Assembly (NCBI GenBank): GCA_016748015.1
Contig: JAAOMT010000261.1
Span: forward strand, 322,733-386,732
Direction: 5' to 3'
Source: Geosiphon pyriformis uo1
Lineage: Eukaryota > Fungi > Glomeromycota
DNA: 64,000 nucleotides
Under the pieces are notes generated by a model, which saw nothing but the letters and a program-made list of their open reading frames with translations, had not been told where the DNA came from and did no database searches. This document shows positions 10,636 to 63,685 of the stretch, in pieces. Numbering within the stretch: the first letter of the stretch is position 1; each line of letters starts with the position of its first letter. The translations under genes and the position numbers were made by a program.

Positions 10636-14052
<3,417 letters not shown>

Positions 14053-21890: not shown

Positions 21891-24800
21891 ATGAAAAACT
21901 TCTTTCTTTCTTTCTTCTAAAAAATTCTCAAAAAGCATGTTTTCTAAAAAAGAAGTTTTTTTTGTTTTTTCTTGTTAGTTTATATTACTATTTTTTTAAC
22001 TAATAACTCTTTCATTGTGGATTTAAGCGCTGTGTCTGGCAGTAATCTGTCTAAGAAAAAAGCACCTAAGGGTGTTTTTCATGGTCTTGCTAGTGGTTTT
22101 TTTTCCCAAAGAAAGAAAGTATTTCTTGACAATATTAAATATTCAGATAATAAAAAGAACATTTCTCTAGTCAAACTTAGTTCTAATGACATGTATTCAG
22201 ACATGAATAATGAATCTAGTTGTGGTAAAGACAATATAATCATGGAGAGTGTCAACAGTGAGTCTCTCTTAGGCTTAATAGCTACTACTCCTAAAGCAAA
22301 AAGAATGAATACTGATATGATTCTTGGATCTCCTTTTAGCTTCCCCAATTTTAAAATAGAAAAAGAAGTGGAACTTCTCCTGCCCCCCCTTGGTATATCT
22401 TTGGAAAAGAGATGGATAGATTTTAAAATTGAGAAAACTCCTGTGAAAGTTTCTGTTAGAAAATTATTTGCTTTGAATATTAACCTTTTAGCTATAGAAA
22501 ATAAATCTACAACAGCAAAAACTCAGTTAATTAGAAAAATTTTTTCATTAGTTAATGGTTTTGGGGGGGCCACTACCCTCTCAAAATTTGAAAAGATCAT
22601 TAGATTTACCTTCACTTCAGAAAAAAGCATGGAAATAGCCACTTTATTGGCCAGAAAGAAAGAGATCAACATAAACAGCAATCTTAAAAGACAAGAAATA
22701 AGGTCAGATTGGGCTGTAGTAATTAAGAAAATTCTCATGGATACACCTAAAGATATGATCATTGTCACAGTATCTGAATTTGAAGAAATTAAGTCGATCA
22801 AAATTCAACTGATTGGAATGTAACAAAAAGCTGTGATGGAGTTTGCTGAATTAGACCAAGCTAATTTGTTGGTCTCTAAGTAGTTATTCCTAATTGGTAA
22901 AGATTCTGTATATGTAGCCAAAATGGTGAAAGATCATAAGACTTGGGCATTAAGGGATTGGTTTAGAGCATTTTTGTTTACTTTGCCAGTAGAAACAACA
23001 GCATATAATCTTGGAAATCTTCTGAAAAGAGCTGGTAAGAAAACTTGTATTATAAACAAATCTCTGAAAATGGGTAATAGAATTTGCTGTGCTGTGGTTG
23101 GTTTTGAATCTGATGATGATCTGAAATCTGTCTTTTACACAGAGCCTATCTATGGTGAAATAAAACTATCTTGGGCTAGGATAGATTTGGTTCATTGTAA
23201 GAAATATAGGCATTTTGGGCATTCAGTTTTTGAATGTAATACTTCAGAAGTACTTGTGCTGCCATTATCTAAAAAGTCATATAAAAAGATTGCTTTAGAG
23301 GAAGTTCATTTTTAGCTTGCTAAGTTGTATAAGAAAAAAGATGTTCTAATCTTTTATCTGGCTGTCTTTAGTGGCAAATCTTGGGCCCAAGTGGTCTTGC
23401 TAGCTAATTTTTCTGGTGGTGCTTACTTCAAGTCTGGTTCTAGTTCTCTTTCTCTTGGCATTTCACATTTAGGTGGCACTCTTTTTCCTATTTTAGCTGA
23501 TAGCTCTGGCTTGGATGATTATTTGGCAGTTTTAAAATGCTCTTTGAAGCTTTTGTCGGATCAGGTTTTTGTATTGTTGAAAAAGTTGAGCTTTGTGGAG
23601 TTGGTGCTTTTGACTGCATCCTCTTCTGCCTCCCCTCCAGTTGCTCCTGTTTTGTTAGCTCCTGTTCTAAATTTGGATATGATTTTGGACAGTGCATTGG
23701 TGTCATCTACTCCCTTTTCCTCTGTTGGTTCAGACTTGATGGCTGATTTTAGCTCTAGTAGTTCTAAGATTCTAACCACCAAAGTGGGTGGATTAGAATC
23801 CAAGATGGTGGCTTTGGAGGCTTTAATTCATTCAGTTTTAGGAAGATTGGATCATTTGTGTTCTGGTGTGGGTTTATTGACTCTCTCTTTGTCTCAATAA
23901 TCAATTTAGTTTGGAAAATTGCTATGTGCAATGCTCGGGGCATGAACAATCCTACAAAATAGGAAGATATTGTCCATTGACATAAAGACATGAGTAATTT
24001 GATTTCAATTATTACAGAAACTAAGTTGAGAAGTAAAGTCCATCCATGGATTGCTAATAAGTTTGATGGTATTTATGTTTTTACTTTTGGTTTGAATTCT
24101 GGATATTTGAGTTCCAGTGTTGTCATTGTTATGAACTTTTCTTTGGTAAAACATATGTATAAGGTTTCTGAAGTGTTTAGTTGGCTCTTATCTATTAGAT
24201 TTCTTTTCAAAAATAAACTTTCTGTGTCAGTTTTGGGGCTTTATGCTGGTGCTTCATCTGGGGTTTGGTTCTTACAGGCTGGTGAGATCAACTCTCTTAT
24301 TGCAAAAGCTGTTAACAAATCTTCTTTCATCATTCTTGGTAGTAACTTCAATGAAGATGGTTCGCAAAAGTGTGCTAGTTTTAAAAAGTGTATTGATTTG
24401 AGGCTGGTTAATTCTTTGATGAATAGTTTGGTTGTGAATTGTTATACATGAAGAAATTCAAGAAGTGTGAAAAAAACAATTGATTATGTATTGGTTTCAT
24501 TAAATTTAGTTAATGCAGTAGTGGATTGTGATGTCATAGATGTTGGGGATTATTTTGACACTAATCATCAAGCTGTTTCTGTGTTAGTAGGTCAGGGCAG
24601 TTTGCTGAACACTCAGTTGAACTTTCTTTGCAAGTAGGCAAATAAGGATTGCTGAAAGTTTGATTTTAAAAGGGCTGATGATGCAAAGTGAGGCCAGTTT
24701 AAAGATACTACAGTGGCCAATACTACTATGTTCTTTGATAATTTTACTACCTTCAAGCAATCCTTAAACTTGAATGTGATGTGTAATATGGTTCACAAAA

Positions 24801-27800
24801 TTATGACAATTTCAGCTAATAAAATATTCAAGAAGAAATGATTTAAGGACTTTGATAGTATTTTTACTAAGAAATCTTCCAGGTTTTATAAGCTGGAGCT
24901 TTTGGTCTTGAAAATTGCTAAGGCCTCTTATAAGGAGGATATTGATAGGTTTGCTTATCTTATAGACTGCTGGAATTCTTTAAACAATATTAAAGCTTCA
25001 ATTGTACAAGAAATTATGAACTTTGGTGCAGATTTTGATCAAGTATGCTCAGCTCTTTTCAATATATGAAAGACATATTGTGCCTCCAAGCTTGCTAAGT
25101 CTTTGTAAGCTAAAGAATTAAGGATAAGGTTGGCTATTAATAAGTGAATGGAAAATTTTGCAGTCAACAAAGATAACATAATCAGAAGTGTGCTGAAGCA
25201 TCCTTTTTGAAAAGTGGTTTTAGACCATCTGGTAGTTGAAGATAAACTAATTCTAGAATCTGACCTAGTTAAGGCCAAGATTAATGTTATCATAGAAGGT
25301 TGGACCAGAAAGCATAGTATGGTGAAGGATTTTTCTGGTGATTGGTCTTATCAATATCAGTCTTTGGAGTATGTTTTTAATGATGCTTTTTCAAATGTGA
25401 TGTGTTTGGTTAGTTTTGATGAGCTACTCGAAGTGATTTCTAATTTGTCTGATGGCAAAGCTGCTGGTTTTTCTGAGATGTTAAATGAGCTTTGGAAACA
25501 TTGTGATAATTTGGTCTTGGATATGCTTTTGGTGCTTTTGAACTTCTGTTTGTCTCATGAATCAGTATTTGGTGCTTAAAAGGAAGCTTGGGTATCAATA
25601 ATTTCAAAACCATATAAGTGGGAGGGAGTTCTTATGAACACCCGACCTATTGCTTTAATCAAGACTGCCCACAAAATCCTCTCCAAGATTCTCTCAAATA
25701 GAATTTCTTCAACATGCAGCTTTTTTGATGTCTTATACAGGGACAATTTCTCGGTCCTAAAGGGTATAACAACACAATCTCCTATTTTTGCCATAGATTC
25801 AGTTATTAAGGATGTCTTAAAAAAGAACTATGAACTTTGGTTGGTCTTACAAGACATGCAAAAGGCTTATGACTCTGTTAAATGAGAGCATCTTAAGAAC
25901 AGTTTAGTCAGAATAAAAATGTGTGACAAGTTCATTAGATTTTTTGATGACATTTACAATGGTCATGTTAATAGAATAATAACAGATTTTGGTTTGACAG
26001 ATAGATATCAAGTACATAATAGTTTGAATCAGAGGGAGATGTTTTCACCACTTCTTTGACACATATTTTATGATTCTCTTTTGTGTGAAGTCAAAAAACA
26101 AGAAAGCATATATAGTTATAACCTAAACTCTCATTTTATTGCCAAATCTGGTTGTATAGAATCTTAGGCTGGATTAACATTTTTTCTTGCTGCTAATGCT
26201 TTTGTTGATGACACAATCTGAATTGGTAGCAGCCAAGCTGCAACCCAACACATTCTCAATGTTGCTAATGAGTTTTTTTGAATCAATGACATTTCTATTA
26301 ACAATAACAAAACAGTAGTAATTCTTATTAATTACAGAGTTACATGTTCTAAATTGTCTATCAGTGGTTTGCCTATATCCATTGCCAAGAAAGGAGAGTC
26401 TTATCACTACCTAGGGATTTTTTTGTCGACTGAGGGTTTGTCAAAGCCTAGTCTGATTAAGACAAATTCTAATGTTAGATTTTTTACCAATCTGGTTTTA
26501 AGAAAGACTATTTCTAACAAACAATTTTCATATCTGGTATTAGCAGTTCTTTATTCTATTGTTAGCTACAAAATACAATTCAGTTTTGTTCTTATTGGTA
26601 TGTGTAATAAGTGAGATTCTTTGATTTGCAGGGACTTAAAGCTGAAGTCTGGTCTACCTCTCAATTTTTCTAATGATGTGCTTTATCATCCTTTATTGTA
26701 TGGTTTGAAAACTTTTGAGCAAATCCAAGCTGAAAGCAAGATTGCTTCCATTTTGTGCTTTGCAAACTCTGTTGGAATTTTGGGTCAGTTGTTTTTGTAT
26801 AGGTTACATAATTTACAGATTTTGTCTTAGAGCCCACTTCATCTATTGGTGTTTTTAGCTTGTATCAAAGTCAGTGTTTCTAATAATTTTTTGGCAAGTA
26901 TGGTTTGCATTTTTCTTGGATGTGGTCTGTCTCTGAGTGGTCATGTAAACAATTCTTTCCGTTTTTGTGACAGAACTTCTATGTTATTTGTTTTTAACAA
27001 GACTGGTTACTTTAAGTTTTTTTCGTTCCTTTAAAGATATGGCATTGCTTTTGTTGAACAGCTCCACAGTAAAAATGAGACTGTTTTTAATTGGAGAACA
27101 TTCAAGCATTGGAAAAGGCTGGATCTATGTAACTCTATTCTTAAATGGTTTAGACTTTCTGTTGACTTTCTTGATGGTGTTGCTTTTTTCTCTGCCTGCT
27201 TTTTTCCTGTGAATATCACTGAGCCTTTTGATATTTTAAAATATAGTGAGTTTGAATTGATTTCTGGTTAGTTGTTGGGTCTTGGAACTGACAGCCTTTC
27301 TGTCTATATGAATAGATCTCTGAAGGGCTTGGGAAGTTTTGACATGAGAGCTGGTGCTGTATTCTTTTTTGAGAATATAAGCCTGGATTTAGGAATCAAA
27401 GTTTTTGGTTTAATGTCTTTTATTTTGGCTGAATTGCAGGCTATTGCATTGGCTTTTGAGTGTGTTTCTTCTATTTGCTTAGTTAGTGTCTTTATGAACA
27501 GTCAGACTGCCTTGAATGTGTGCAAATCAGAATTGGGTCTTGTTTATTCAGATTTTTGGAATCACTGTTGAATTGAACATCAACACATTGTGAACATTAT
27601 TAGAAAAAAAGATTTAAGTGTTAGCTGACACAAAGTGAAAGGTTATTCAGGTGTTGTGAGTAATGAATACACTAATGCACTTGCTAATATGGCATCTTTC
27701 TCTCTCTGATGTCTTATTTCTCATGTGAAGGAATGTCATATTTTAGCTAAAAGAAATGTCATTTCTGGTAATTCTAGACATTTTGTTTGTGGGGTCTTTA

Positions 27801-28654
27801 GGTCTGTTTCTTCATACACACTAGAAAGTTGGTTCAGGTTTTAGGGTTTTGAATAATAGTCTGCACTTGGATATTAATTGGCTTAAATTGTTATTGGTGT
27901 GGCATCCAGACTTGTACATGGCTGCTGGCTTTATCAGTAAATCTACAGCTGGTGCTTGTACATATTTTATAAAAGCTTTACACCATCGGCTGCCAGTTGC
28001 TGTTCATAAACAACTGTATGACAAATGCTATTTCAGTGTGCTATATCTGTATTGTGGTGAAATTGAAGTTTCTAATTATGCTTTTTCTTGTGTGGTTAAT
28101 AATTCTGTTTATTGTTACTTGTTGGATGTCCATGCCACTGCTTGGAGTACACTTTCTGGTTTTTCTGTCTTCTCTTCAAGTGTTTTTCAATTACTGTCTT
28201 TTTGTATCTCAAATGTTGCAGTTTGCACAGCTTTTTACAAGAGCTTTGTTTTTAAAGAATAGCGTTAGAAAATTACATCTGTTTTTGGAGGTGCCAAAAT
28301 AGCTGGTCAAAAGATCATGGAATTTGTACATAACTTGTGTCTTGCTTTTAGGAATAAGGTTTGGTTGGTCCATACTAAGCATCATGCCTATATAGAGAAA
28401 AATGGGATGATACTATGTAATGGTTCAGCTTTAGTTTTGGTTACAGGGCTTTTTGCGGATGTTGTTAAGTTGCTGGGTATTGCTGAGACAATCGGTATTG
28501 GTTTTGGATTTCATAAGTCTTGTTTGTTTTTCTCAGGAGTTGAGAACTCAGTCTCAGTACATATAAGCACTTAGTGTAGTCTTGATTGGCCCAAGTGGCT
28601 GGTTGCATGTAGAAAACACATAATTTATGTCTAGTTTAGATCAGTTGTTGATGT
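21891..28654 (+). mobile_element. Near full-length, heavily decayed LINE copy 3; 3' UTR interrupted by LTR element A
   Basis: ORF1 remnants ~22017-23900 and ORF2 remnants ~23897-28574 are collinear with copy 2. The 3' UTR matches copy 1 up to atgt (28651-28654), then TGTTAC of an LTR begins. Confidence 0.9.
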
Positions 28655-34604: not shown

Positions 34605-35580
34605 TGTTACCAGTAGAATTTTAGCTATTAATTAGCATGAAATTACCCTTATAATTACTATAATTAATTAGTATATTAATATCATTTCAAATTATCATTT
34701 ATTATTTAATCAATTATTACATATCACAATTCAATTAAAATAATCTAATTAGTATAAAAGAAGTAGAATGATCAAATTACACAATACTCTGAACTTTATA
34801 ATATTCAAAAATTCGCCGAAATTTACAGAAATTCGCCGAAATTATAAATAGTTCACCCAAATTAATCAATAGTTCAGCGAAATAACTTGTAGTTCATCAA
34901 AATGTATCTTTAGTTTGCCAAAATTTGAGCAAAGAGAAAAAGTGCAAGTTCATAGACTAGTACTACAACAAGTTGTATAAAAGAAGAGCTTTTTTCTTCT
35001 GGAAAATGTATCTTACTTTAGATTTAACAATTAGAATCATCTTTTACATACAAAAACAAAAATAAATATCAAATAATTCGAAAAACCAAATTCTTTAAAT
35101 TATTACACTTGGAAAATTCTCAAAAACCCAACTAACATTTTGAAATTGATTAGCTACCAATTTCAATAAACTGTTAGTGACTCCAAGCCTGGATAGAAAA
35201 CGTTTCCCTTGATAAAATCCTATTTCTTTTACATTTTTTTTATTTTTATTTTTTTTTCTTATTACAATTATTAGGGTAGCCTATAGATGAGATTCCTGTA
35301 GAAGAGTTGACTTTCACAGCAAAAGTAACTACACATTTTAGTGAGCTTCCAGACAAGCAATTCCTGAAAAAGAGTTGACATTTACTACAATGTAACTATA
35401 CAAAATAACTGGCACAGAATTGGCCATTCTACTTATAAGCCCAGCAGTTCAAATTATAGAAGATAATTTGAAGAGAAAATTCAGTTACTGGAGGTTCAAC
35501 CACATCTAGAAAACGTGAATTCACAGCAAACAGATATCAACAACATTACAGAAAAGAGACCAAAAAAACCTCTGGTAACA
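34605..35580 (+). repeat. Element B 5' LTR (976 bp, 9-bp terminal inverted repeats TGTTACCAG/CTGGTAACA)
   Basis: Direct repeat of 43831 onward. TATAAAAG at 34976. Confidence 0.93.
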
Positions 35581-35582
35581 TT

Positions 35583-35599
35583 TGGTGCTCTCCCACGGA
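35583..35599 (+). promoter_or_regulatory. Primer-binding site TGGTGCTCTCCCACGGA
   Basis: Starts with TGG two nt after the LTR end. Same site in C (58504-58520) and D (53442-53458, minus strand). Confidence 0.85.
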
Positions 35600-35625
35600 A
35601 ATAACACAGCAACAACAAATTCAAA

Positions 35626-38600
35626 GTGGCGACCACACCAGAGACAGCAACTCTAAAGTATTACCAGTCAATTTACACCCACTGCAAGCAAAGATTCAAC
35701 ATTCCAGACAGAATTGAAGTTGTCAAGAAATCAGTATACCAATACATTGAAAACTGCATCAATAATTATCTTTTTGGAAACTACAATATTTCAAAAGTTA
35801 GAAGCAACCTTTACAATAATTTAGTGTACTATTCACAATTAGGAACAGAAGACCTGAACAGTGAAACACTTGCTACCTACTTCCAAGAACTTAATTTTAA
35901 CATTATTGAGTATTGTGAAGAAAAATACCCAGTACAGTCTAAATACTTTTTTGACTTTGAATCAAAGACAGAAACAAGCAACAAAGACAAACAAAGATTG
36001 AAGCAATACTCAAAAACCACTCCAAACACTCCAACACTACAAAAGACACCTGCCAAACACTTGCAAACACCTGAACAAGGAACTAGTATCAAATTACCAC
36101 TTTCTATTACACTATTTCCAATTTCACTTGTTCAACCACAAACACCAAATTCACTACTTAACCATTTCTCCAGACCAGAAGATTTTCAGTCACTTAGAAA
36201 TCCTACTCAACAACAGGAACCAATATCAACAAGTGCCAATATCATTGATTACTTACAAGAAAACGAAAGTAATCACTCAAAAAGCTTGGAAAGTGAAGAA
36301 ACTGAATCAGAACCAGAAGAAATTACAGAAAACAAAAAAGAAATGGCAACTGCTTACATTGCAAAAATCCCAGAATTCACTAGTGAAGACAATAATACCA
36401 GTCCTCAAGAATGGCTTGACAAGGTTTAAAAAGCAGGAGATGCAAATGGTTGGATTACAGCAAGAATGCTCAAAGCAATTTTCTACTTTCTCCAAGGAAC
36501 AGCAGAAGAATGGTTTGAAAACTTAGAAGAACCATTTAAAAACTGGCAAGCATTCAAAGATGCTTTTCTACAACAATTCACCAACAACAATACCTCTATC
36601 ACTCTCAGAAACCACTTTCACAATATCAAACAAGAAACATCTGAATCTGTTATGACTTATCTTGAAAGATTTAACAAACTTCTCAGATGAATCTGACAAT
36701 TGGAAACCAATAATTACTATTCTGATGCTCAAATTCTGGATCAGTTTATAGCAGAGTTAAAAAACAAACTGATTAAAAAAGTCTGTCCACATGCTCCAGC
36801 AGACTTAGCAACTGCTATTAGACATGCAAAGAGCTATGAAATGGCAATGGAAGAAGCAAATCACACCAAGCTTGTAAATTTTGCAATTAGAGAAACCAGC
36901 TCAGCAGCTGAAGAAAAAATAGACCAACTCACAAAGAAAGTTGAAAGCTATTTTACAAACCAACAACAACAGCAGCAACAATCACAAAGATATCAACCAC
37001 CACCACAATAATGCAACCAAAACAATTTTGGATCACCCTCCAACAACCAATCTCAAAATTGTTATTATTGTGGAATTCCAGGACACTGGAAACGAGATTG
37101 CAGAAAACTGCAAAGAGACCAACAAAACAGGAGTAATCAACGTTACTTTTCACTACAACAATCATATTACCAATCTCCACCACCAACCTATTATTTACCA
37201 AGACCACAAAATCAGAACAGTTACTATCCACCAGCTCCACAACTAATACAGCAACAATATCAGCAACTTTTACCAATTCAGTCATATCAGATACCATCCA
37301 CTCAACAATATCAAGTACCAGCAAGAAGATTGGTTCAACATAACCAATTCACACCCCAAAATCAATTGCAGAATAACCACAACAGAATCAATCCAAATAA
37401 CCAGTTGGTTCTTCAAAATTTGGGTCAGCAAAGATCCAATCACTATCACACTCAACCCAGTTATCTTACAATACCAGAGGAATCGGATTTTCAACAAACT
37501 GCACTTTCTGAAAATAAAGTTGCAGTGCCAAGATCAAACCCTTTCAACCACACCATTTCACCAGCTCAAATTGCCCAAAATGCCAATCTGTCAGATATAT
37601 TTCCATTTGAATTTGAAGCAAATGAATCACCATTTCTGCTTAGTAATACAGCAGTTAATAAACAGAAAGCAATTACTGCTATGTACACAGAAGCTACAGT
37701 GGAAGAAAAACTCATTCGCTTAATCTTAGATAATGAATCAGCTGGAAGTATCATCACTTACCAGCTGATGCAACAACTCAAACAAAATGTAAACAGACCA
37801 GTTCAAACAGTTATTGTTATAGCTGATGGTATGAAGAAGACTCCAGTATGAAAAATTGATGATTTCCTTTTTTTAATTAATGGAATTACCATTCCAGTTA
37901 AAGTTCTTGTTATAGATGCACCCCAATATCAAGCTCTAGTCGGAAATGATTGGCTTCTCAAGGCCAATGCAAACCTGAACTGGGAAACTCAAGAACTTAA
38001 AATCTCATACCAAGAACAATATACCATAGTACCTGCAACCTGTGATATCTTTAACAAACAATCAGAAAAAGCTCCAGTATTTGAATTTGAAGAGGAGAAA
38101 GAAATGCTACTTACTGAAACCTACATGGCTCTTGGATCAACATTCAATTGGGCTGAAGAAACCAAACAAGAGATTTTTGAAGAATCAAGAGAATGGAAGA
38201 AAGTTAGATATTCTATACCAGAATCACGGAAACAACCACCCTATATTCCATTCAAATGCAAAGATTGCAACAAAAAACTTTTATCAATGGGAGCATGTAT
38301 TTCTTCAGAAGAAGAATATGAAACTCGTACCTGTTACTTTTGCAAAGCATGCCATAGAGAACGATTTGGATCTCCAAAAAGAAGTGGAAAATAGGACAAC
38401 ACACCTTGCCTTACATGTGGAGAAATGCTACCAGAAGAATGCAATTGGATTAATGTAGCAATGAGAGGAGGAGTATGTGATCAAACCTGTCAATATGCTC
38501 TATCAATTTCGGAAAAAGTCAGAAGAGGAACACTATTTGATGCAGCATACAACAGTGCTCTCAATAAACTTTACTACTACCCTTATAATACTAAAATAAT

Positions 38601-41550
38601 TTTTGATCTAGCAATGGCATTGATCAATGGAGCCACCCAAAAAGATGTCCACCAAATGAAAAAAGCTGAATATATTGAGTATACCATGGAATTAGCTGGA
38701 TTTGATTATGAAGATGAAGTAGAAACCTACCACCAAATTGCAAGCCACATATATCTGACCAAAGAAGCTCAAATTTAATGATTAGAGCAAATGAACATTT
38801 AATTGTGTAAAGAATGTGTTATGTCTTGTGATGACCAATGGTGTTTAGAATGTTATGCTCTTAGCATTCCTCTGCCAGATGAGAATGATGAAAATAAAAT
38901 CGAATTTGGAGTATCTGAACTAGTAGAAGAACCACCAACCACTCCCATCTATCTTTTTGAAAAGCAACCACCTCTACAACTTAAATATTTTGACAACCAT
39001 GGCCAAGGAATCAGACCAGAAAAAGCACACGAAATTGATGCTGGATATGACCTAAGATACCCAGGAAAAGATACTTTGATTCTCCAACCAAAGTTTTTGA
39101 CAAAAATCAATCTCAAAATTGCTCTTGAAATTCCACCAGGAGCAATGGTTCAAATTGTTTCCAGATCATTATTGGCAAGCAAAGGAATCAATATTAGAGG
39201 AGAAGTTATAGATGCAGGATACACTGGAGACATTACTATTATGTTACAGAATAAAACAGACAAACCATTCAAAATTGAACATGCTGAAAAAATTGCTCAA
39301 GCAATTTACTTACCCTTAATCAACATTTCGGGTTTACAATCAGTAAACAACAGAGAACAATTGGGAAAAAGTAAAAGAGGAACTCAAGGTTTTGGTTCAA
39401 CTGGACAATTTACAGTTCCAGTAAATATAGCTCTTAATACACAAAATGAATCTCACCAGATTCTTTAACTTCCCCAACCAATTACCATTTCACTTTTTGG
39501 AGAACATCACGAAATTTACACTTGCTCAAAACCCACTACTACCCAACAAATCTTTGAATCCAATAAACAAATTTGTTTGAAGCATGAAATATCAATTCCA
39601 AATGTTTATATTCCCAAAGAAATGAAAAAATTTTGAGTTATATTCTACAACCCCAATAATTACCCTATTGTCTTATTAAACAAATTAGAAATTGGAATCA
39701 TACACAGCAATATCTTTCAAGATNNNNNNNNNNNNNNNNNNNNTGAATCTCACCAGATTCTTTAACTTCCCCAACCAATTACCATTTCACTTTTTGGAGA
39801 ACATCACGAAATTTACACTTGCTCAAAACCCACTACTACCCAACAAATCTTTGAATCCAATAAACAAATTTGTTTGAAGCATGAAATATCAATTCCAAAT
39901 GTTTATATTCCCAAAGAAATGAAAAAATTTTGAGTTATATTCTACAACCCCAATAATTACCCTATTGTCTTATTAAACAAATTAGAAATTGGAATCATAC
40001 ACAGCAATATCTTTCAAGATGAAAACCCTCAAATTGTCTCTAATTTCATCAAAATTGTAAAGCACACTCTACTCCCAAATCCAAATATTATTCCCACTAC
40101 TAAAAACTACCACTTTTTGGAAGAAAAACTCTTTCGAATCAACATGGGTCCCTTAGAACCTTAACAACAAAGACAATTGAAACAATTGATAGCTGAATTT
40201 GTAGATATATTTGCAAAAGACAACAATGACTTGGGAAAAACGAACATTGTTCAACATCAGATTCATACAGAAGATGCTCTACCAAAACGACAACAAACTT
40301 ATCGAGTACCACCTACCAGTTACCAATTCATCAGAGAAGAGATCCAAAGAATGCTCAATAATGGATTGATTCAACCATCAAGAAGTCCTTGGGCCTCACC
40401 AATAGTTTTAGTTAAAAAGAAAAACGGAAAAATCAGATTCTGTGTTGATTATAGACAACTGAATAGTGTTACAATTGGAGATGTCTACCTTTTTCCAAGA
40501 ATTGATGACATGCTAGATGCTCTAAGAAAAGCCAAGTTCTTCTCAACTTTAGACTTGGAAAGTGGATACTGGCAAGTCGAAATGGACTCAAAAGATAGAC
40601 CCAAAACAGCATTCACCACCCAAGGGGGAAACTATGAGTTTAATGTTATGCCTTTTGGACTCTACAATACACTAACAACATTCCAATGACTCATGGATGT
40701 TGTATATAAAGGACTCTTATGGCAATCAGTAGTTGTTTACCTTGATAACACTAATGTGTACTCACCAAGCTTTGAAGCCCATCTTATTCATCTGCGAGAA
40801 GTTTTTCAATGATTATGGAAAGCAGGATTAAAGTTGAACATTGAAAAATGTCACTTTAGAAAAACAAGCTTAATCTTTCTTGGGCACATTGTTAGCAAAG
40901 ATGGAGTCAAACCAAACCCTGAAACAATTAGTGCTGTCAAAAACTTCCAAACCCCAAAAAATATCACAGAGCTACGAGGATTTGTAGGATTAGTCTTCTA
41001 TTATTGAAAATTCATCAAAGGATTCTCAGAAATTGCCAAACCACTCAATTATCTCACCAATAAAAATGTGCCATACAAATGGACTGAAAAACAACAAAAA
41101 ACATTTGAAACCCTCAAAACAAAGCTGACAACAGCCCCAGTTCTTGCTTATCTGGACTTCAACAAACAATTTCAACTAGCCATTAATGCTTCACACATAG
41201 TATTTGGTGCCATTTTATCACAAGTAGATAAAAATAGGCAAGAACAAGTCATCACTTATGCTAGTAGAACACTCAAACCAACAAAACTAAAATACGGCTC
41301 AACTGAATTAGAAGCTGTTGCAGTTATTTGGGCTCTTAAACATTTTCAACAATATCTGAAGAATGGAAAAGAATTTGACATAATAACGGACAACATTGGT
41401 CTCAAATGGCTCAATAAAAAGAAAACTAAACAAAGTGCCAAACAGTCTCAATGGAATGACTTCCTAGCAGACTACAGATATATTGTACATTACAAACCAG
41501 GAAAACTACATACCAATGTTGATAGCCTCTCAAGAATAAGACAAGATTAA
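35626..41550 (+). pseudogene. Element B single-frame gag-PR-Cys-rich-dUTPase-RT-RNase H polyprotein (stop-interrupted)
   Basis: All ORF fragments (35626, 36466, 36700, 37330, 38104, 38425, 38803, 40177, 41068) are in one frame. Motifs: CYYCGIPGHWKRDC, LILDNESAGS, DAGYDL, GEVIDAGYTG, RGTQGFGSTG, SPWASPIVLV, LDLESGYWQ, MPFGL, YLDN and ends VDSLSRIRQD*. Confidence 0.9.
38980..39410 (+). other. dut: Trimeric dUTPase domain within the element B polyprotein
   Basis: Motifs I-V: AHEIDAGYDL, SRSLLA, GEVIDAGYTG, KIAQAI, RGTQGFGSTG. Equivalent domains in A (~33400-33810), D (~49630-50050) and C (~61880-62300). Confidence 0.9.
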
Positions 41551-41607
41551 TACCAACAACAATTCCACCACAACTTACCAACCTACCAACAAAATAACCA
41601 AACAAGA

Positions 41608-42993
41608 ATGAATCTCAGAAATTACAGCAATCTTAAAAATTATTTGGAGACTCTTACTATGCCAGAAAACTGGTCTCCAAGTGAAAAACATCATTTACAA
41701 CATCAATCAAAACAATATTTTATACACCAAAACAAAATCTATTATAAAAATCACAGAAACCCAAACCAACTACTCAGATTAGTACAAGAGAATGAAAAAG
41801 AAACAATTTTATACAACATGCACACAGATCCTTCTTCAGCACACTTGGGAAGAGATAGAACAATTCAAAGAACTCTTGAACATTATTTTTGGCCTCACAT
41901 GTAAAAAGACATTCGACAATATGTAGAATCTTGTGATAATTGTCAAAGAAAAGGAGGAACTCACCCCACAAAACCTTTAAATCCAATCAAAGTTGGACAA
42001 TCTTTTGACAGAGTTGGAATTGATTTAGTCGGACCATTACCTATCACAACCCAAGGAAATTATTATATTGCAGTTGCAATGGATTATCTTACCAAATGGC
42101 CTGAAGCTAGAGCCATCCAAAAAGCAGATGCAAAATCAATAGCAAATTTCATCTATGAAAACATTATCTGTAGACATGGATGCCCAATTGAACTCTTATC
42201 TGATCAAGGAACACATTTTGTGAACAACTTGATACAAAAAATTTGTGAACGGTTCAATGTCAAAAAACCTTTATCATCACTTTATCATCCTCAAACAAAT
42301 GGACTTGTAGAACGTTTCAACAGAACATTGTGTGAATCTCTAGCCAAAGTCTCAACAGACTTTGAGCAGAAATGGGATATCTTTATTTCATCAGTGTTAC
42401 TAGCATACAGAACACTAAAACAAGATACTACAAAACACACATTATTTGATCTTACTTATGGAAAAACAGCAACATTACCAATTAATTTCACAGTAGAAAC
42501 ATACTCAGTGCAACCAATCAATGAAGAAAACTTTTAAGAAACACTCCAAAGAAGGGCCTACACTCTTCTTAGTACACTGGAAGAAAAAAAAAGAATAGCA
42601 GCAACTTATATTGAACATTTCTAAGCTCAACAAAAAAAAAGACATGGCAACAAATTACTACTTATTACCAACGAATTTAAAGTTGGAAATAAAGTTTTTT
42701 TACACAGAACTAAGGCTGAAAAACAATGGAGTAAAAAATTTGAAAACAAATGGGATGGACCATTTTATATTCACGAAATTCTAGGCAATGGATCATACAA
42801 ATTAAGACTTAATGACAAAATACTAGCAAAAGTTGCACATGGAGACAGATTGAAACACTATCATTCCAGAAACAATCTTAAACTATTAATTCCACAAATT
42901 GGTACACATTCCCCTTTAATTAATTCTAAAAATATTCCCCGAAATTTAGAACCAATAATTATAATAGAACAACAACCAAACTTGAACACTTAA
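41608..42993 (+). pseudogene. Element B integrase, separate ATG-initiated ORF (462 codons incl. stop; HHCC, DDE core, GPF/Y module)
   Basis: MNLRNY..., H..H..CDNC, GIDLVGP, DYLTKWPEA, SDQG, HPQTNGLVERFNRT, KWDGPFYI. No chromodomain seen. Confidence 0.88.
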
Positions 42994-43142: not shown

Positions 43143-43850
43143 ATGATTATTCCCCAAAATATTCAACAAATATCCCAAAAGTTAATGTTAGCCTTAAAAA
43201 CACTTCCTGACTTATCCATAACGATTAATGGAAATCAAATTAATTACATTCAGAAAAAAACCACAGCCCCAGTAGCAAATCATTTACAGAACTATCACTC
43301 CTATAGAAGAAAAACAAGAAGTCACTCTGAAAATAGATTACCAAGACTTTTGAAGCAAGCACTAGAAAAAAATCTTTTAATTGCCCTTATTGACATTCCA
43401 CCAAATACTACAATGCAACAAAAACTTCTATTACTTCTCAATGAACAGAACAATGAACACACTCCTATCTATAAATACTTTCACATTGGGAAAACACTTT
43501 ATGAACGAAAACTGGAACTTGAAGCAACAAATCTCACTCCTGAAGCTATACAAAAACAAATTCACAATGAATTCAAAACAGCAGCTGGACCAACAAACAC
43601 TTGCTACAAACTTAGAGCAGCTTTTAGACTCTATGACTTGTTTAATACTTGTGAAAATGGTTTACAAAATCCAATACTGCAACCAATGAAAGTCTAATAC
43701 ATTGGCAAACTTACAGAACTGAAATTTTAACAATTTTCAGACCAGATTACTTCAATTATTTTGGATCACTATCTCAATATTACAGATAGTGCTTGGACTT
43801 TAATGGAGCTCAGTCTTGAGGAGAAAATTATGTTACCAGTAGAATTTTAG
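43143..43850 (+). pseudogene. Element B ORF3, unknown soluble protein (~235 aa) in the env position, overlapping PPT and 3' LTR
   Basis: The frame continues past two CAA>TAA-type stops to TAG at 43850. Homologues in D (45522-46241 -), C (62430-62737) and A (~56700-57260). Confidence 0.75.
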
Positions 43851-44508
43851 CTATTAATTAGCATGAAATTACCCTTATAATTTCTATAATTAATTAGTAT
43901 ATTAATATCATTTCAAATTATCATTTATTATTTAATCAATTATCACATATCACGATTCAATTAAAATAATCTAATTAGTATAACAGAAGTAGGATGATCA
44001 AATTATACAATACTTTGAACTTTATAATATTCAAAAATTCGCCGAAATTTACAGAAATTCGCCGAAATTATGAATAGTTCACTCAAATTAATCAATAGTT
44101 CAGCAAAATAACTTGTAGTTTATCAAAATGTATCTTTAGTTTGCCAAAATTTGAGCAAAGAGAAAAAGTGCAAGTTCATAGACTAGTACTACAACAAGTT
44201 GTATAAAAGAAGAGCTTTTCTCTTCTGGAAAATGTATCTTACTTTAGATTTAACAATTAGAATCATTCTTTACATACAAAAACAAAATAAATATCAAATA
44301 ATTCGAAAAACCAAATTCTTTAAATTATTACACTTGGAAAATTCTCAAAAACCCAACTAACATTTTGAAATTAATTAGCTACCAATTTCAATAAACTGTT
44401 AGTGACTCCAGGCCTGAATAGAAAACGTTTCCCTTGATAAAATCCTATTTCTTTTACATTTTTTTTATTTTTCTTTTCTTTTCTTATTACAATCATTAGG
44501 GTAGCTTA
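43831..44508 (+). repeat. Element B 3' LTR (partial, ends at N gap)
   Basis: Nearly identical to 34605 onward; preceded by PPT gaggagaaaatta. Confidence 0.93.
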
Positions 44509-46357: not shown

Positions 46358-47743
46358 TTAAATTAAGTGTTCAAGTTGTTGTTTTATTATAACTATTGGT
46401 TCTAAATTTTGGGGAATATCTTCAGGATTAATTAAAGGAGAATGTGTACCAATTTGTGGAATTAATAGTTCAGGATTGTTTCTGGAATTATAGTGTTTCA
46501 AACAATCTCTATGTATAACTTTTGTTAGGATTTTGTCATCAAGTTTTAACTTGTATGATCCATTGCCTAGGATTTCATAGATAAAAAATGGTCCATTCCA
46601 TTTATTTTCAAATTTTCCACTCCATTGTTTTTTGGTTTTAGTTCTGTGTAAGAGAACTTTGTTTCCAATTTTAAATTTATTGGTAACTGGTGGCAATTTG
46701 TTGTCATGTCATTCTTTTTGTTGAGCTTGAAAGTATTTAATGTGAGTTACTGCTATTTGTCATTTTCTTTCCAATGTGCTAAGCAGAGTATAGGCTCTTC
46801 ATTGTAATGTTTCCTGAAAGTTGTCTTCATTAATTGGCTGTACTGGATATGTTTCCACTGTGAAACTAATTGGTAACATTGCTGTCCTTCCATAGGTTAA
46901 ATCAAATGGTATGTGTTTTGTGGTATCTTGTTTTAGTGTTCTATATGCTAGTAACACTGATGGAATAAAGATATCTCATTTCTGCTCAAAATCTGTTGAG
47001 ACTTTGGTTAAAGATTCACACAATGTTCTGTTGAAATATTCTACAAGTCCATTTGTTTGTGGATGGTAGAGTGAAGATAATAGTCTTTTAACATTGAATC
47101 GTTCACAGATTTCTTAAATTAAATTGTTCACAAAATGTGTTCTTTGATTAGATAAAAGTTCAATTGGGCATCTATGTCTACAAATAATGTCTTCATAAAT
47201 GAAGTTTGCTACTGATTTTGCATCTGCTCATTGAATGGTTCTGGCTTCAGGCCATTTGGTAAGATAATCTACAGCTACTGCGATATAATAGTTTCCTTGG
47301 TTTGTAATAGGTAGTGGTCTGACTAAATTGATACTAGCTCGGTCAAAAGGCTGTCCAACTTTGATTAGATTTAAAGGTTCTGTAGGGCAAGTTCCTCCTC
47401 TTCTTTGACAAATATCACAAGATTTAACGTATTCATGAATGTTTTTTTTCATTTGGGGCCAAAAATAGTGTTTTAATGTTCTTTGGGTGGTGCTATCTTT
47501 TTCTAAATGTGCTGATGAAGAGTCTGAGTGCATGTTGTATAAGATAGTTTCCTTCTCATTTTCCTGTATTAATCTGAGTGGTTTGTTTGAGTTTCTGAAG
47601 TTTCAATAATAAATGGTATTGTTGTGTAAAAAATATTGTTTGGCTTTTTGTTGTAATTGGTGTTTTTCATCTGAAGACCAATCTGTTGAGATTTTTAGTG
47701 TCTCTAAATATTGTTTGAGATTGTTGTAGTTTTCAGAGTTCAT
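46358..47743 (-). pseudogene. Element D integrase, separate ORF
   Basis: Begins MNSENY; contains HSDSSSAH..CDIC, DYLTKWPEA and KWNGPFFI. Confidence 0.87.
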
Positions 47744-47793
47744 TGTTTGTTGTTTTTGTTACTGCTAATTCAAATGGGTGTTGGTTTTGTGTT

Positions 47794-50700
47794 CTAATCT
47801 TGTCTCATTCTTGAGAAACAATCAACGTTGGTGTGGAGCTTTTCTGGTTTGTGATGTACAATGTATTGGTAGTTGGCTAAAAATCCTGTTCATCAGGTTT
47901 GTTTGGCATTCAGCTGAGTGTTTTTGTTTTGAAGCCATTTGAGTTCAATATTATCAGTGATAATATCGAATTCTTTAGGCCTGAGATAAAAGTTGAAGTG
48001 ATGTAGGGCCCAAATTACGGCTGCTGTTTCTAGTTCTGTGGTAGAGTAGTTTTTTTCGGCTGGTTTTAATGTTCTGCTAACATAAGCGATTACTCACTCA
48101 TTTCCGTTGTCATCTAATTGTGATAAGATGACACCAAAGACAGTATAAAAAGCATCTGTAGCTAGTCAAAATTGGTTACTGAAGTTTGGGTAAGCGAGAA
48201 TTGGAGCTGTTGTCAGCTTTTTCTTGAGAATTTTAAAAGCTTTTTGGTGTTCTTCCATCTATTTGTATTCAACGTTTTTAGTAGTGAGCTGGTTAAGGGG
48301 TTTTGTGATTTCTGAGAATCCTTTAATAAATTTTCGGTAATAAGAAGCTAATCTAATAAATCCTCTCAATTCTGTAGTATTTCGTGGAGTCTTGAAGTTC
48401 TTGACAGTGCTGATTTTTCTAGAGTCTGGTTTAATTCCATCTTTGCTCACAATGTGGCCAAAAAAGGCCAAACTCATTTTTCCGAAGTAGCATTTTTTGA
48501 TGTTCAGTTTCAATTCTGCTTTCCGTAATCATTGAAAAACTTCTTGCAAGTGTTTTAAGTGTAATTCAAAAGATGATAAATAAACATCAGTATCATCAAG
48601 ATAGACAACTACTGATTTCCAAAAAAGACCTTTGTAAACAACATCCATGAGTCTTTGGAATGTTGTTGGTGCATTGCATAATCTAAAAGACATTACATTA
48701 AACTCGTAATTTTTTCCTTGAGTAGTGAATGCTGTTTTGAGGCGATCTTTGGGATCCATGGCAACTTGCCAGTATTTGCTCTCTAAATCTAATGTCGAAA
48801 AGTATTTGGACTTTCCAAGGGCATTCAACATGTTATCAATTCGGAGAAGAGAGTAGGCATCTCTAATGGTGACGCTGTTGAGTTGTCAATAATCAACACA
48901 AAATTGTATCTTTCCATTTTTTTTTTTAACTAAGACCACAGGTGAAGCCCATGAACTCATTGATGGTTGAATAAGCCCATTATTAAGCATCCATTGTACT
49001 TCTTCTCTGATAAATTGGTGGCTTTCTAAAGCAACTCGGTAGGCTTGTTGTTGCTTTGATTTGGCATCTCCTGTATAAATTTGGTGTTGAACCAAATCAG
49101 TTCTTCTTAAGTCATTGTTGTTTTCGGCAAAGATATTAGCAAATTCTGCAATTAGCTCTTTAAGCTGGTTCTGTTGTTGTGGTTCAAGTTGTCCCATGTT
49201 GATTCAAGATAGTTTTTCTATGACAACATAGTAGTTTTCAGAACTGGAATTTGGGTTGGTTTTTGATAGTGAATGTTCAATGATTTCTGAGAAATTGGGA
49301 ACTGTCTGGGGTAATTCTTGTTGAAAGATGTTACTGTGTATGACTCCAATTTCTAAGTTATTTAATAAAACTATGGGATAATTGTTGGGATTGTAAAAAG
49401 TAACTTGGACTTTCTTTGTTCCTTCTGGAATATAAATATTTGGGATTGAGATATTATGTTCCAAGCAGACTTGTTCGTTGGATTCAAAAATTTGTTGTGT
49501 GGTTGTTGGCTTTGGGCAGATGTAGATTTTCAGATGTTCCCCAAAGGATGAAATAGTAATTGGTTGTGGAAGTTGTAGAATCTGGTAAGATTCATTTTGT
49601 TCATTAAGAACTATGTTTACTGGAACTGTAAATTGTCCAATTGAACCAAAACCATTGGTTCCTCTTTCATTTTTTCCCAATTGTTCTCTTTGATTGACCA
49701 ATTGTAAACCCGAAATGTTGATTAAGGGTAAATAAATAGCTTGAGCAATTTTTTCAGCATGTTCAATCTGAAAAGGTTTATTGGTTTCATTTTGTAACAT
49801 GATTGTAATATCTCCTGTATATCCAGCATCTATGATTCCTCCTCTAACATTGATTCCTTTGCTTGCCAATAATAATTGTGAAGTGATTTAGACCATTGTT
49901 TCTGGTGAGATTTTGAGGTTGATCTTGGTAAGAGAATTTGGTTGAAAAACCAAAGTGTCTTTTCCTGGATATCGTAGATCATATCCAGCATCAATTTCAT
50001 GTGCTTTTTCAGGCTTTATTTCTTGTTTATTGTTGTTGAAGTATTTGAGCTGTAAAGCAAGCTGACTTTCAATAAGATAGACGGGTGTCATTTTAATTTC
50101 CTCCATTGCTTTAGATTTACCAAATTCAATTTCATATTCATTACTTTCACTGGATAATGAAATGCTAAAAGCATAGTATTCAGGACATCATTGTTCATCA
50201 CAAGACATTATGCATTCCTCACATAATTTAATGTTCATTTGCTTTAGCTATTGAGCTTGAGCTTCTTTGGTTGGATAAGTGTGACTGGCGATTTAATGGT
50301 ATACTTCTACTTCATCTTCATAATTAAATCCAGCTAATTCCATAGTGTATTCAATGTATTCTGCTTCTTTCATTTGACAGATATCTTCTTTGGTAGCTCC
50401 ATTAATTAGTGCTATTGCTAAGTCAAAAATCATCTTAGCATTATGGGAATAGTGATAAAGTTTGTTGAAAGTGCTGTTGTATGTTGCATTAAAGGGTGTT
50501 CCTCTTTTGACTTTTTCTGAAATTGATAAAGCATATTGGCAGGTTTGCTTGCAGACTCCTCCTCTCATTGCTATATCAATCCAATTGCATTCTTCTGGTA
50601 GCATATCTCCACAAGTCAAACAAGGGGTGTTGTTCTATTTTCCACTTCTTTTTATTAGATAGTCCCATTGTTTTCTGTGACAAGTCTTGCAGTAATAACA

Positions 50701-54754: not shown

Positions 54755-55171
54755 CTTATTCAAGCTTCAGTACTAATCTATTCAGACTACAGTAAGCCAT
54801 TCATAATTACAACTGATACATCTGGCCAAACATTGAGAGCAGTATTATCACAGAAAAAACTGGATGGGAGAAAACATCCAGTAACATATGCCAGCCAAAG
54901 TTTGAGTCTAGCTGAAAAGAACTATAGAATTCTAGCTTTAGAACACTTAGCCATTTATTGGGCTGTCATCAAATGGAAAGAATACTTGAGTCAAAAGTTT
55001 GACATATATACTGATCACAAAGGATTGACTTCAATCCAAAAGCAAAAATTTGGAGATAATTGCTATGCCAGATGAAAGATAAAACTTTCAGCATTTAATT
55101 ACACAGTATATTACAAAAAAGAAAAAGAAAACAGAAATGCTGATGGATTGTCGTAAATAAGACAAATTTAA
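54755..55171 (+). pseudogene. Element A RNase H region (after gap)
   Basis: IITTDTSGQTLRAVLSQ..HPVTYASQSL..EKNY..LEHLAI..FDIYTDHKGL..NADGLS; stop at 55169-55171. Confidence 0.85.
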
Positions 55172-55201
55172 AGACATTCCAACCCAAAAATATAACAAAA
55201 G

Positions 55202-56571
55202 ATGAATATACAAAAATACCAACAACTTCAACATTATATAAATACCTAATTGTTCAAGGAGAAATTATCTCAAAAAGAACAAAGAAACATAAAACAACAA
55301 TCAAAATATTTTATCAACCATCAAAATATACTTTACCAGAAGAACAAAAGAAATTCAGATCAACTAACTAGAGTAATCACAGAACCAGAGAAAGAAACAA
55401 TATTATTCAATATGCACTCAAATCCAACAGCAGAACATTTTTATAAAGAAACAACCATGGAAAGAACCAAAAAAAAATACTATTGACCAACAATATATCC
55501 AGACATTATCCAATATGTTCAAAATTGTGATGCTTGTCAGAGAAGAGGAGGAACAAAACTTAGTGAACCATTGAGACTAATCAGAGTGGAACAATTATTT
55601 GATTGTATTAAAATTGACTTAATCAGACTATTAACAATCACCAGCAGAGGCAACAGATATATTGCAATAGTCATGAATTATCTTACTAAATGGCCAGAAG
55701 CAAAAGCCATTCAAAGAGCAGATGCAGAATCCATTGCCGAATTCATTCATCAAGATTTAATATGTCAACACAGATGTTCAAAAAAACTATTATCAGATCA
55801 AGGAACTCATTTTGTGAATAGAACATTAGAAAAATTAAGTCAAAGATTTGGAATTAAAAGACCATTGTCATCACCATACCATCCATAAACCAATAGATTA
55901 GTTAAAAAATTTAATAAAACATTGTGTAAAGCCATTGTCAAAATCAGCCAAGAAAACCAGGATGAATAAGATTTGATTATACTATCAGTATTATTTGCTT
56001 ATTGGACAATGAAGCAGGACACTACACAAACAACACCATTCAAATTAGTATATGGTAGAATAGCAATATTACCAGTTGAAATAGAAGTTAAAACATATCC
56101 AACAGAACCAATAACAGAAGAGAATTTTCAAAGAACATTGTTGAAAAGAACATATGACTTAATGGAAACACTAGAAAACACATGACAAAAAGCAGCTGAT
56201 AACATACAAAAGTCACAAGAGAAACAAAAAAAAGACACAATAACCAACTATTAGAGAAACCAGTTGAATTCAAAATTGGAAACAAAATACTTCTATATTG
56301 TACTAAAGCAGAAAAACAATGGAGTGGAAAATTTGACTCCAAATAGGACAGACCATTTTACATAAAAGAAATTCTTAGAAATGGAGCTTATAAATTAAGG
56401 TTGAACAACAAAATTTTAACCAAAACAGCACATGATGATTGACTGAAACAATATCACCATATAATATTATCATCTACCAGTAATATTTCACAATTAAAAG
56501 TACAGAGAATATTAGTCAAACCAGATGAAATTTCATAAGATCTAATTATAATCATTGAACCAAACATGTAA
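55202..56571 (+). pseudogene. Element A integrase, separate ORF
   Basis: Begins MNIQKY; contains HSNPTAEH..CDAC, NYLTKWPEA, SDQGTHF and TPFKLVYGR. Confidence 0.85.
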
Positions 56572-63500: not shown

Positions 63501-63685
63501 AACTACATAAAGTAACTGACAAGGAATTGGCTATTCTACTTATAAGCCCAGCAGTTCAAATTATAAAAGATAATTTGAAGATAAATTCAGTTATTGGAGG
63601 TTCAACTACTTCCTGAAAAACATGAATTCACAGCAAATCAACATTACCAACATTTAAGAAAAGAGACCAAAAACCTCCAGTAACA
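57522..63685 (+). mobile_element. Ty3/Gypsy element C, internally deleted (no RT/RNase H/integrase), intact 980-bp LTRs and ATAT target-site duplication
   Basis: LTRs at 57522-58501 and 62706-63685, PBS 58504. gag-PR-Cys-rich-dUTPase (58544-~62440) is fused to the ORF3 3' end. atat flanks both ends. Confidence 0.92.

Follow-up and report, generated by a model that had tools for sequence, protein, structure and literature searches.

The Ty3/Gypsy-type LTR elements described here encode their integrase as a gene of its own, located after the stop codon that ends Pol, and this enzyme is likely made by ribosomes that terminate at that stop and restart on the full-length RNA, a reading to which we assign a probability of about one half. 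In the usual scheme the integrase is built into Gag-Pol, freed by cleavage in the particle and thereby brought to the cDNA; a high-copy lineage without any Gag-Pol-integrase link implies that another route to the cDNA exists.

The Pol-integrase junction in the window

The window, by which we mean the whole 64,000-nt stretch of Geosiphon pyriformis DNA that was analysed, contains elements designated A to D. Element B lies on the forward strand between a 5' LTR (TG...CA, 34605..35580) and a 3' LTR (43831..44508, interrupted by an N gap at 44509) that are 96.8% identical over 679 nt; the LTR pair of element C is 94.7% identical over 980 nt. Two nucleotides past the B 5' LTR there is a PBS-like TGG... 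stretch (35583..35600), identical in B, C and D, and a polypurine tract (43818..43827) adjoins the 3' LTR. The decayed B frame (35626..41550) encodes, according to Pfam, Gag (capsid and zinc knuckle), protease, a Cys-rich region, dUTPase, RT and RNase H, with Retrotrans_gag, Ty3_capsid and zf-CCHC as the gag domains of this element type. Its candidate start is a GTG at 35626, which C and D share with B; in all three, A stands at -3 and G at +4. An N gap at 39724-39743, accompanied by a 277-nt assembly duplication, falls within B, and D shows the frame across this gap. The Gag-PR-Cys-rich-dUTPase-RT-RH polyprotein of the original prediction is upheld by a single Gag-PR-Cys-rich-dUTPase frame in B together with a single dUTPase-RT-RH frame in D. 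Downstream of the integrase, B also has a decayed ORF3 (43143..43850) that crosses the polypurine tract and reaches the 3' LTR.

In B, Pol ends after RNase H at a TAA (41548..41550, ...DSLSRIRQD), followed by a 57-nt A/C-rich spacer (41551..41607) with no ATG and no predicted structure, and then by a stand-alone integrase ORF of 461 codons (41608..42993) with decay stops at 41902, 42535 and 42622. Element D, on the reverse strand, has a TAG at the same place (47794..47796, ...DCFSRMRQD), a 50-nt spacer that shifts the frame (47744..47793) and a decayed integrase ORF, also of 461 codons, starting at the ATG at 47743 (46358..47743). Element A, on the forward strand, retains an RNase H fragment that begins after an N gap (54755..55171) and terminates with ...DGLS*IRQI and a TAA (55169-55171); its 30-nt spacer (55172..55201) is in frame and contains one more in-frame stop, and its decayed integrase runs from the ATG at 55202 to an approximate end (55202..56470), with 67% DNA identity to that of B. 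Pfam assigns RT and RNase H to the upstream frame and an H2C2, rve and SH3 integrase to the downstream one. Every coordinate that had been predicted for the Pol stops and the separate integrase ATGs of B, D and A proved correct, as did the A at -3 and the proteins beginning MN, present in all three. The spacers had also been called A/C-rich and unalignable. The first description holds, the A+C content being 82-86% for the B and D spacers and 80% for that of A, as compared with 60% for the RT-IN coding region of B; the second is slightly too strong for B and D, whose spacers still align loosely. Single-sequence folding of the 60 nt before the integrase ATG gave no general signal (0 kcal/mol in B and D).

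A stop common to three copies would in itself be weak evidence for a separate gene, since all of them are decayed, the B spacer is in frame and stop-free, and B and D share another stop, at 40810. Over 906 aligned B/D codons, which take in the junction and spacer, B has 7 stops and D has 17. The only indels in this alignment are a 3-nt in-frame one in RNase H and those of 5 and 2 nt in the spacer, so that the frame-breaking indels are confined to the spacer. It is this confinement, along with the same split in intact relatives, that takes the observation beyond chance. With respect to the contigs of run X1, 29,617 pieces together cover the whole RT-IN-ORF3 stretch, and a loose end at 41549 (10 contigs among those listed) continues as a TAG and a different A/C-rich spacer.

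The split in related elements

Among metagenome loci in which both RNase H and integrase are visible, 32/38 are split and the other 6/38 are fused and distant. The 34 measurable split junctions extend from -11 to +727 nt, with spacers in all three frames (11/9/14); 14/34 have no stops in either flanking ORF. Two loci, L012 and L041, are complete elements with terminal repeats (in L041, 435 nt at 96.8% identity) and are stop-free except for a recoding site within Gag-Pol, which makes them intact elements for testing an alternative integrase route. The named relatives are from Rhizophagus and Cetraspora; a search of viral contigs turned up no integrase relative. The 16 long proteins nearest to the B RT-RH (49.8-54.4% identity) all terminate 0-3 residues past the RNase H match, and position 1 of the integrase family is Met in all 102 homologues reaching the start among the best 120. 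The original prediction of a separate cistron, due neither to decay nor to readthrough, is thus borne out by this scoring of junctions and starts: the intact relatives carry a stop and a new ATG and no sense linker.

The split is the rule for the lineage, with exceptions. Fused proteins P0126, P0130 and P0136 are nested among split relatives inside the RT clade, while the split loci L066 and L067 fall outside it, and L034, L036, L055, L066, L067 and L069 lie outside the integrase core clade. The RT and integrase trees (FastTree, midpoint-rooted) are congruent, with a Mantel r of 0.85 between the distances for 24 elements (0/2000 permutations), and the two enzymes are inherited together between one LTR pair.

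The least probable of all the readings we considered is that the split arose as dead copies decayed, or that the integrase belongs to an independent, Ginger-like DNA transposon beside truncated elements. Ginger1 DNA transposons have a stand-alone Gypsy-like integrase and move without RT or Gag. The decay of all the window copies and the additional stop common to B and D would fit this reading, and two stand-alone integrase proteins, P0142 and P0202, which from their domain content we take to be Ginger-like, branch beside the wider group, although this placement is weakly supported (0.75). However, the stop-free split elements lie between direct terminal repeats, RT-RH is directly upstream of the integrase, the RT and integrase trees agree and the frame-breaking B/D indels keep to the spacer. 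For the lineage, decay or an independent transposon is ruled out by L012, L041, L013 and L031.

Expression of the separate integrase

In copies of the B/D type, with a single frame from Gag to RNase H, every ribosome would end at the Pol stop, and a minority would then resume at the first strong AUG beyond a short, unstructured, AUG-free spacer. The outcome would be a low integrase:Gag ratio with no need for frameshifting. The integrase ORF starts near where, in fused relatives, the region homologous to integrase has its N-terminus (in many fused Pol proteins the match to the integrase profile begins at positions 3-9), and so the start codon likely replaces a protease cut. Lacking a Gag anchor, the integrase would likely be loaded non-covalently via the genomic RNA or Gag, by analogy with foamy-virus Pol; alternatively, it might join the cDNA later. 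An apparent -1 Gag/Pol overlap in L012 and in-frame Gag-Pol stops in L008, L037, L041 and L049 suggest that few ribosomes would reach the Pol stop in these elements and that reinitiated integrase would be scarce, which counts against this reading.

Several features are as termination-reinitiation would have them. Junctions overlap or are at most 5 nt apart in 9/34 cases, including TAATG (L012, L022) and ATGA (L033); the spacers of 1-100 nt (n=19) are ATG-poor, with 4 as against 10.2 expected from shuffles (Poisson about 0.03); and the integrase start context is strong, with a purine at -3 in 48/57 and G at +4 in 44/58. Others are not. The spacers of 156-727 nt (n=8) are not depleted (34 ATG vs 39 expected), which disagrees with scanning from the stop. 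A TURBS-type pentamer, taken as the conserved 18S-complementary sequence of such systems, is not enriched upstream of the stop (1/32 vs 25/238 background windows), nor is any hexamer upstream of the Pol stop, and there are the three fused members inside the RT clade. Termination-reinitiation is known from caliciviruses, influenza B, HvV190S, CHV1 and the non-LTR element SART1, and in TURBS viruses the stop and start lie within 20 nt, with efficiency dropping beyond about 30 nt (PMC10275272, in the portion available). The UAAUG and AUGA overlaps resemble those of the reinitiating viruses. In contrast to TURBS viruses, 25/34 junctions have spacers of at least 24 nt, only the remaining 9/34 falling inside the 20-nt limit, which the window copies exceed with their 30, 50 and 57 nt. 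The available text of PMC10275272 does not report reinitiation in an LTR element.

As a best guess, the reading that ranks next is possible but clearly less probable: integrase, and ORF3 too, would each be translated as the first cistron of a subgenomic mRNA that arises through splicing from the 5' LTR or is driven by an internal promoter, and the stop/start overlaps would reflect compaction. The undepleted long spacers and the strong start context suit it. So does the third ORF conserved after the integrase, which needs a further expression route anyway and makes subgenomic RNAs plausible. Moreover, foamy-virus Pol comes from a spliced mRNA, as the accessible part of PMC3705302 describes. Against it, there is no conserved acceptor: YAG occurs within the last 30 nt before the integrase ATG at 26/58 starts, and many of these are the CAG of a hairpin, R1, which is missing from the hairpins of L025 and L020. 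The ATG-poor short spacers and the 9/34 tightly coupled junctions also argue for termination-reinitiation rather than subgenomic RNAs.

R1 is a bulged, covarying RNA hairpin of about 40 nt immediately before the integrase AUG in one sub-clade. It occurs once each in 17/80 loci (16 at E < 1e-11, from 14 of which the model was built, and L020 at 0.015). In every case it lies on the sense strand and closely precedes the integrase ATG, and the 306,567 bases scanned contain no other occurrence. Two-sided changes are seen in 6/12 pairs, 95.8% of cells pair compared with 19-51% in slid controls, and RNAalifold returns the same fold; the carriers cluster in the integrase tree (support 0.80). Such a position-specific, covarying and sub-clade-grouped structure would fit a reading in which ribosomes enter internally at the integrase AUG, independently of upstream translation, R1 acting as an IRES-like or protein-bound operator in this sub-clade and A-rich unstructured leaders serving elsewhere. 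We regard this as unlikely: R1 is absent from the window copies and most split loci, Rfam 15 gave no gathering-level match in 20 loci, nothing in Rfam matched the hairpin of 12 loci even at E values up to 5, and the RNA structure past the upstream stop in SART1 can, in the part of PMC10275272 available, also serve reinitiation. The R1 pattern had no match in viral contigs. Under termination-reinitiation, the sub-lineages with R1 or with long spacers probably have a modified entry route.

Two further proposals would restore a Gag-Pol-IN product. One, a very improbable minor splice that deletes the stop and joins RNase H to the integrase for packaging, derives from Rhizophagus clarus models (P0124, P0184, P0317) that pass from the RNase H end to integrase residue 3, and from database models P0123, P0125 and P0129, which also join both. 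Yet the R. clarus join leaves out the conserved Met as well as N.ADALSR, a motif located at the end of RNase H, a donor-like GT near the Pol stop is found in just 7/34 junctions and in neither B nor D, and the invariant integrase Met would serve no purpose. Most likely, these joined models are gene-prediction artefacts. The other, readthrough or frameshifting from RNase H into integrase, has even less to recommend it and is already largely refuted. The lineage appears, judging by stop contexts, to use readthrough elsewhere, inside Gag-Pol: 5/6 of the stops in L008, L037, L041 and L049 are in TGA-CTA or TAG-CAATTA contexts, which we take to be readthrough signals. These candidate stops and the open, in-frame B spacer would favor such a mechanism, but neither context occurs at any RH/IN stop (0/34), an in-frame spacer free of stops exists in only 4/34 junctions, and all frames occur.

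Known systems, R1 and ORF3

In common with Ty3/Gypsy elements, this lineage has LTRs, a PBS-like site, a candidate polypurine tract, a Ty3-type capsid with zinc knuckle, the order PR-RT-RH-IN and an H2C2/rve/SH3 integrase, and its RT-RH falls among Gypsy Pol proteins. It differs in giving the integrase its own ORF and ATG, in 3/3 window copies as in the 32 split loci. The Metaviridae pol includes the integrase domain (ICTV profile, PMC7879559); with integrase outside pol, the lineage is best filed as a Gypsy-derived variant and not as a canonical member. The fungal Gypsy elements PosPlaTy3-5 and Tuber Tmt1 similarly place dUTPase between protease and RT, but their coding regions are described either as a single, fused Gag-Pol ORF or as a gag ORF plus a pol ORF, the available part of PMC2864245 mentioning no separate integrase ORF. 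Foamy viruses make the Pol precursor without Gag and package it non-covalently through RNA and Gag (PMC3705302, in part); there the whole Pol, with its integrase, is free and only the precursor is packaged, whereas here RT stays with Gag and integrase alone is free. DIRS elements likewise encode their integrating enzyme on its own, according to the accessible portion of 10.64898/2026.05.21.726589, though it is a tyrosine recombinase and not an H2C2 and rve DDE integrase. Our literature search, with Repbase, GyDB, subscription journals and supplements (for example, Rhizophagus TE libraries) outside its scope, did not turn up any Gypsy element whose integrase has an ORF to itself.

The junctions, from TAATG overlaps to 700-nt spacers, provide natural variants of eukaryotic polycistronic translation. 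Gene predictors appear to join the ORFs via false introns or to label the integrase a lone transposase, and such mispredictions would give a wrong picture of how many intact retroelements mycorrhizal genomes contain.

R1 is a candidate for a new RNA element, and the ORF3 proteins form a new family. A more elaborate and rather doubtful proposal would unite them, in an old and successful lineage of mycorrhizal fungi, in a polycistronic Gag-Pol/IN/ORF3 genome whose free integrase is made from the genomic RNA and captured in cis by it, with R1 in its sub-clade combining translation control and packaging and ORF3 acting as adaptor or reinitiation helper. Hepadnaviral epsilon and the phage operator hairpin are precedents to which a dual-role R1 can be likened. 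The idea of ORF3 as a third cistron gains from its conservation after the integrase in 17 loci and from a homologue of the window ORF3 in the relative L003 (E 3e-12). The link between the window ORF3 and the 17-member family is weak: hhalign gave a probability of 63% at E 7e-5, and a search with the family HMM left the window ORF3 below significance (E 0.24). No Env features were seen in ORF3, the ESM Atlas matches of the window ORF3 were all below the recognition threshold, and the 17 family members gave no Pfam match near threshold. A sequence comparison of the family with PDB likewise yielded nothing under E 0.1. The family is modelled as a small helical protein (pLDDT 94), for which Foldseek retrieved nothing at E 0.001 from either PDB or BFVD and the best Z among 48,161 chains was 4.5, a value that does not in itself make the fold novel.

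The stop between RNase H and integrase

Each of the Ty3/Gypsy-type copies B, D and A closes its Pol frame after RNase H and starts the integrase anew, with all three junctions found as the original prediction described them: TAA in B (41548-41550, plus strand; integrase restart at 41608), TAG in D (47796-47794, minus strand; restart at 47743) and TAA in A (55169-55171, plus strand; restart at 55202). In Pfam terms, reverse transcriptase (RT) and RNase H are encoded ahead of the stop, and an H2C2/rve/SH3 integrase in the frame that follows it. Copy B is flanked by LTRs (96.8% identity across 679 nt) and has Gag, zinc knuckle, protease (a weak match) and dUTPase in a single frame; in D the Gag-to-dUTPase frame extends through RT and RNase H. 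Every copy in the window is decayed. An alignment of 906 codons that takes in the junction and spacer shows 7 stops in B and 17 in D; because the two also have one decay stop in common, the shared junction stop alone is little proof. The complete set of indels between B and D consists of 3 nt in frame within RNase H and 5+2 nt within the spacer, as would be expected for non-coding DNA separating two coding frames.

In B, C and D the Gag frame opens with a candidate GTG start (35626-35628 in B), preceded by A at -3 and followed by G at +4; the first ATG lies about 240 codons downstream. Copy C (57522-63685) retains the pair of LTRs (94.7% identity) and may be flanked by a 4-bp ATAT target duplication, with no RT, RNase H or integrase; it is an internally deleted, probably non-autonomous copy, apparently inserted in the 3' end of A. 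An exact 277-nt duplication flanking a 20-N gap in B (39447-40020) is an assembly artefact. A second repeat family occurs as several diverged copies (384-3963, 16687-19862 and 23684-28654; 65-67% identity), and the minus-strand translation at ~11100-11400 holds a DLGSA... motif that we take to be protein-kinase-like, probably in a host gene exon.

According to the ICTV profile of the Metaviridae (PMC7879559), integrase sits inside pol, whereas in this lineage it occupies a separate ORF. Searches of the open literature, which leaves aside Repbase and closed journals, turned up no Gypsy element whose integrase has an ORF of its own, and none is mentioned in passages of PMC3248453, PMC2864245, PMC5911963, PMC10224137, PMC12789967, PMC13468544, PMC11075540, 10.1101/2021.03.30.436303 and 10.64898/2026.05.21.726589. 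The split organisation is real and conserved, and apparently undescribed in that literature; the division into Gag-Pol and integrase is itself nearly certain.

Conservation of the split in relatives

One metagenome scan covered 10 of 64 parts, and the best 80 of its 562 loci were kept. Both an RNase H end and an integrase are present in 38 of these (the other 42 show no RNase H end by the test applied): 32 are split and 6 fused. Identity to the query is 34-41% in the fused loci, and four split loci fall in that range as well. Including the window copies, 34 junctions were measured; L062 was left out (no start located), and L006/L023 and L005/L058 are near-duplicates. Stop and start overlap or lie at most 5 nt apart in nine junctions (two TAATG, one ATGA, two at -8, two at -11, and one each at +2 and +5), with spacings of 24-93 nt in 17 and 156-727 nt in eight. 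The three frames are represented 11/9/14 times. Moreover, 14/34 junctions are stop-free on both sides, and the complete elements L012 and L041 carry Gag, a Pol ending after RNase H or after a C-terminal tail, integrase, further ORFs and terminal repeats. The comparison that could have refuted the original prediction, by showing a sense codon and an in-frame linker between RNase H and integrase, came out in its favor: intact relatives keep the integrase as a genuine separate ORF.

An acidic tail of 280-590 residues past RNase H, with no match in Pfam, occurs in L041 (4945-6705) and in the sub-clade carrying the R1 hairpin (L011:2420-3274, L013:3497-4441). An ORF family of 140-290 residues, ORF3, lies 3' of integrase in 17 loci (for example L025:1596-2039 and L012:8592-9179). 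The ORF3 of copy B (43143-43850) matches that of L003 (E 3e-12) and, weakly, the 17-locus family. For the family, the predicted structure is a confident helical domain (pLDDT 94), to which no structural match was found. The C-terminal end of ORF3 in B and L003 is encoded across the polypurine tract and on into the LTR, and in L012 an extra coiled-coil-like ORF (7458-8258) stands between the integrase and the ORF3-family gene.

At the protein level, the search covered proteins of 261-832 residues; its 120 best matches to the B integrase measure 392-453 residues and have no RT or RNase H domain, and their named sources are Rhizophagus irregularis and R. clarus. Met occupies the first profile position in all 102 that reach it, the other 18 being called from a later start; this pattern partly reflects gene callers and was therefore examined in DNA as well. 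The 16 longer proteins that most resemble B in RT-RNase H all end 0-3 residues past the RNase H match. Three related, genuinely fused proteins from metagenome gene calls (P0126, P0130, P0136) count against a universal split. RNase H and integrase are also joined in six database models from Rhizophagus or Cetraspora; the three R. clarus models among these six omit both the final RNase H motif and the Met of the integrase, and their joins look like predicted introns.

Ancestry of the split elements

With concatenated and partial gene models dropped, the RT-RNase H tree (186 rows) places 62 of 66 integrase-less rows in a single clade (SH-like 0.93). The same clade takes in the R. clarus models and the fused proteins just named, three of each, and the remaining 114 fused rows fall outside. 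In the integrase tree, built on 144 rows, support for the core split group is 0.95, and several split loci lie outside it. RT and integrase distances correlate among 24 split elements (r 0.85; 0/2000 permutations), and therefore the integrase travels with the RT, which rules out its being a passing DNA transposon. The simplest reading of these midpoint-rooted trees would be a passage from fused to split, with occasional re-fusion. Split elements with divergent RT outside the main clade (L055:765, L066:1356, L067:1223, L069:793) may come from a different group of hosts or mark a second origin.

Expression of the integrase

Readthrough as a means of joining RNase H to integrase can be largely rejected, in agreement with the original prediction: none of the 34 junctions has a readthrough-type context at the stop, and only four have an open, in-frame spacer. 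Inside Gag-Pol, five of six in-frame stops in four intact loci (L008:870; L037:374 and 929; L041:3358; L049:481 and 1585) have TGA-CTA or TAG-CAATTA, presumably readthrough contexts, and these stops are likely readthrough sites; some fall between protease and RT, not between Gag and protease, and L037 and L049 have two each. It seems that the lineage relies on readthrough where fusion is wanted but not at the RNase H/integrase junction. A -1 frame Gag/Pol overlap at an A/T run (L012:3132-3147) is a candidate frameshift site.

We give a probability of about 0.5 to termination-reinitiation, in which ribosomes would stop after RNase H and resume at the integrase AUG. It is favored by the coupled stop/starts, the scarcity of ATG in short spacers (4 observed against 10.2 expected), the strong start context of the integrase ATG and the unstructured spacers of B and D. 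PMC10275272 gives UAAUG and AUGA as overlap types in reinitiation systems, SART1 as a retrotransposon case, an efficiency of 3-20% in caliciviruses and a stop-start limit of 20 nt in TURBS viruses. Counting against reinitiation, 25/34 spacers here exceed that limit, ATG is abundant in the long spacers, neither a TURBS-like motif nor any other enriched one was found ahead of the stop, and elements with a recoded Pol would yield little integrase by this route. Production from a subgenomic RNA is a strong rival, if a distinctly less probable one, but no conserved acceptor was seen; internal ribosome entry at the integrase start seems improbable. Speculatively, integrase might be loaded into particles with the help of RNA and Gag, a route for which foamy-virus Pol is the precedent (PMC3705302).

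In one sub-clade, the ~40-nt hairpin R1 lies directly upstream of the integrase ATG (L013:4456-4506, L009:588-638, L011:3290-3341 and 14 more loci). Its fold comprises a 4-bp stem, a 12-nt bulge and an 8-bp stem interrupted by a bulged A and closed by a loop of three bases, and RNAalifold agrees. Over 14 sequences, pairing holds in 95.8% of cells (19-51% in slid controls) and 6 of 12 pairs show two-sided change, figures biased in favor of the fold since it was derived from the same sequences. No Rfam match was found, either at gathering level in 20 loci or on the hairpin at E up to 5 in 12 loci, and the R1 model found no further copy in the 306,567 bases searched, window included. That model matches once per locus in 17 loci, three of them outside the set from which it was built.
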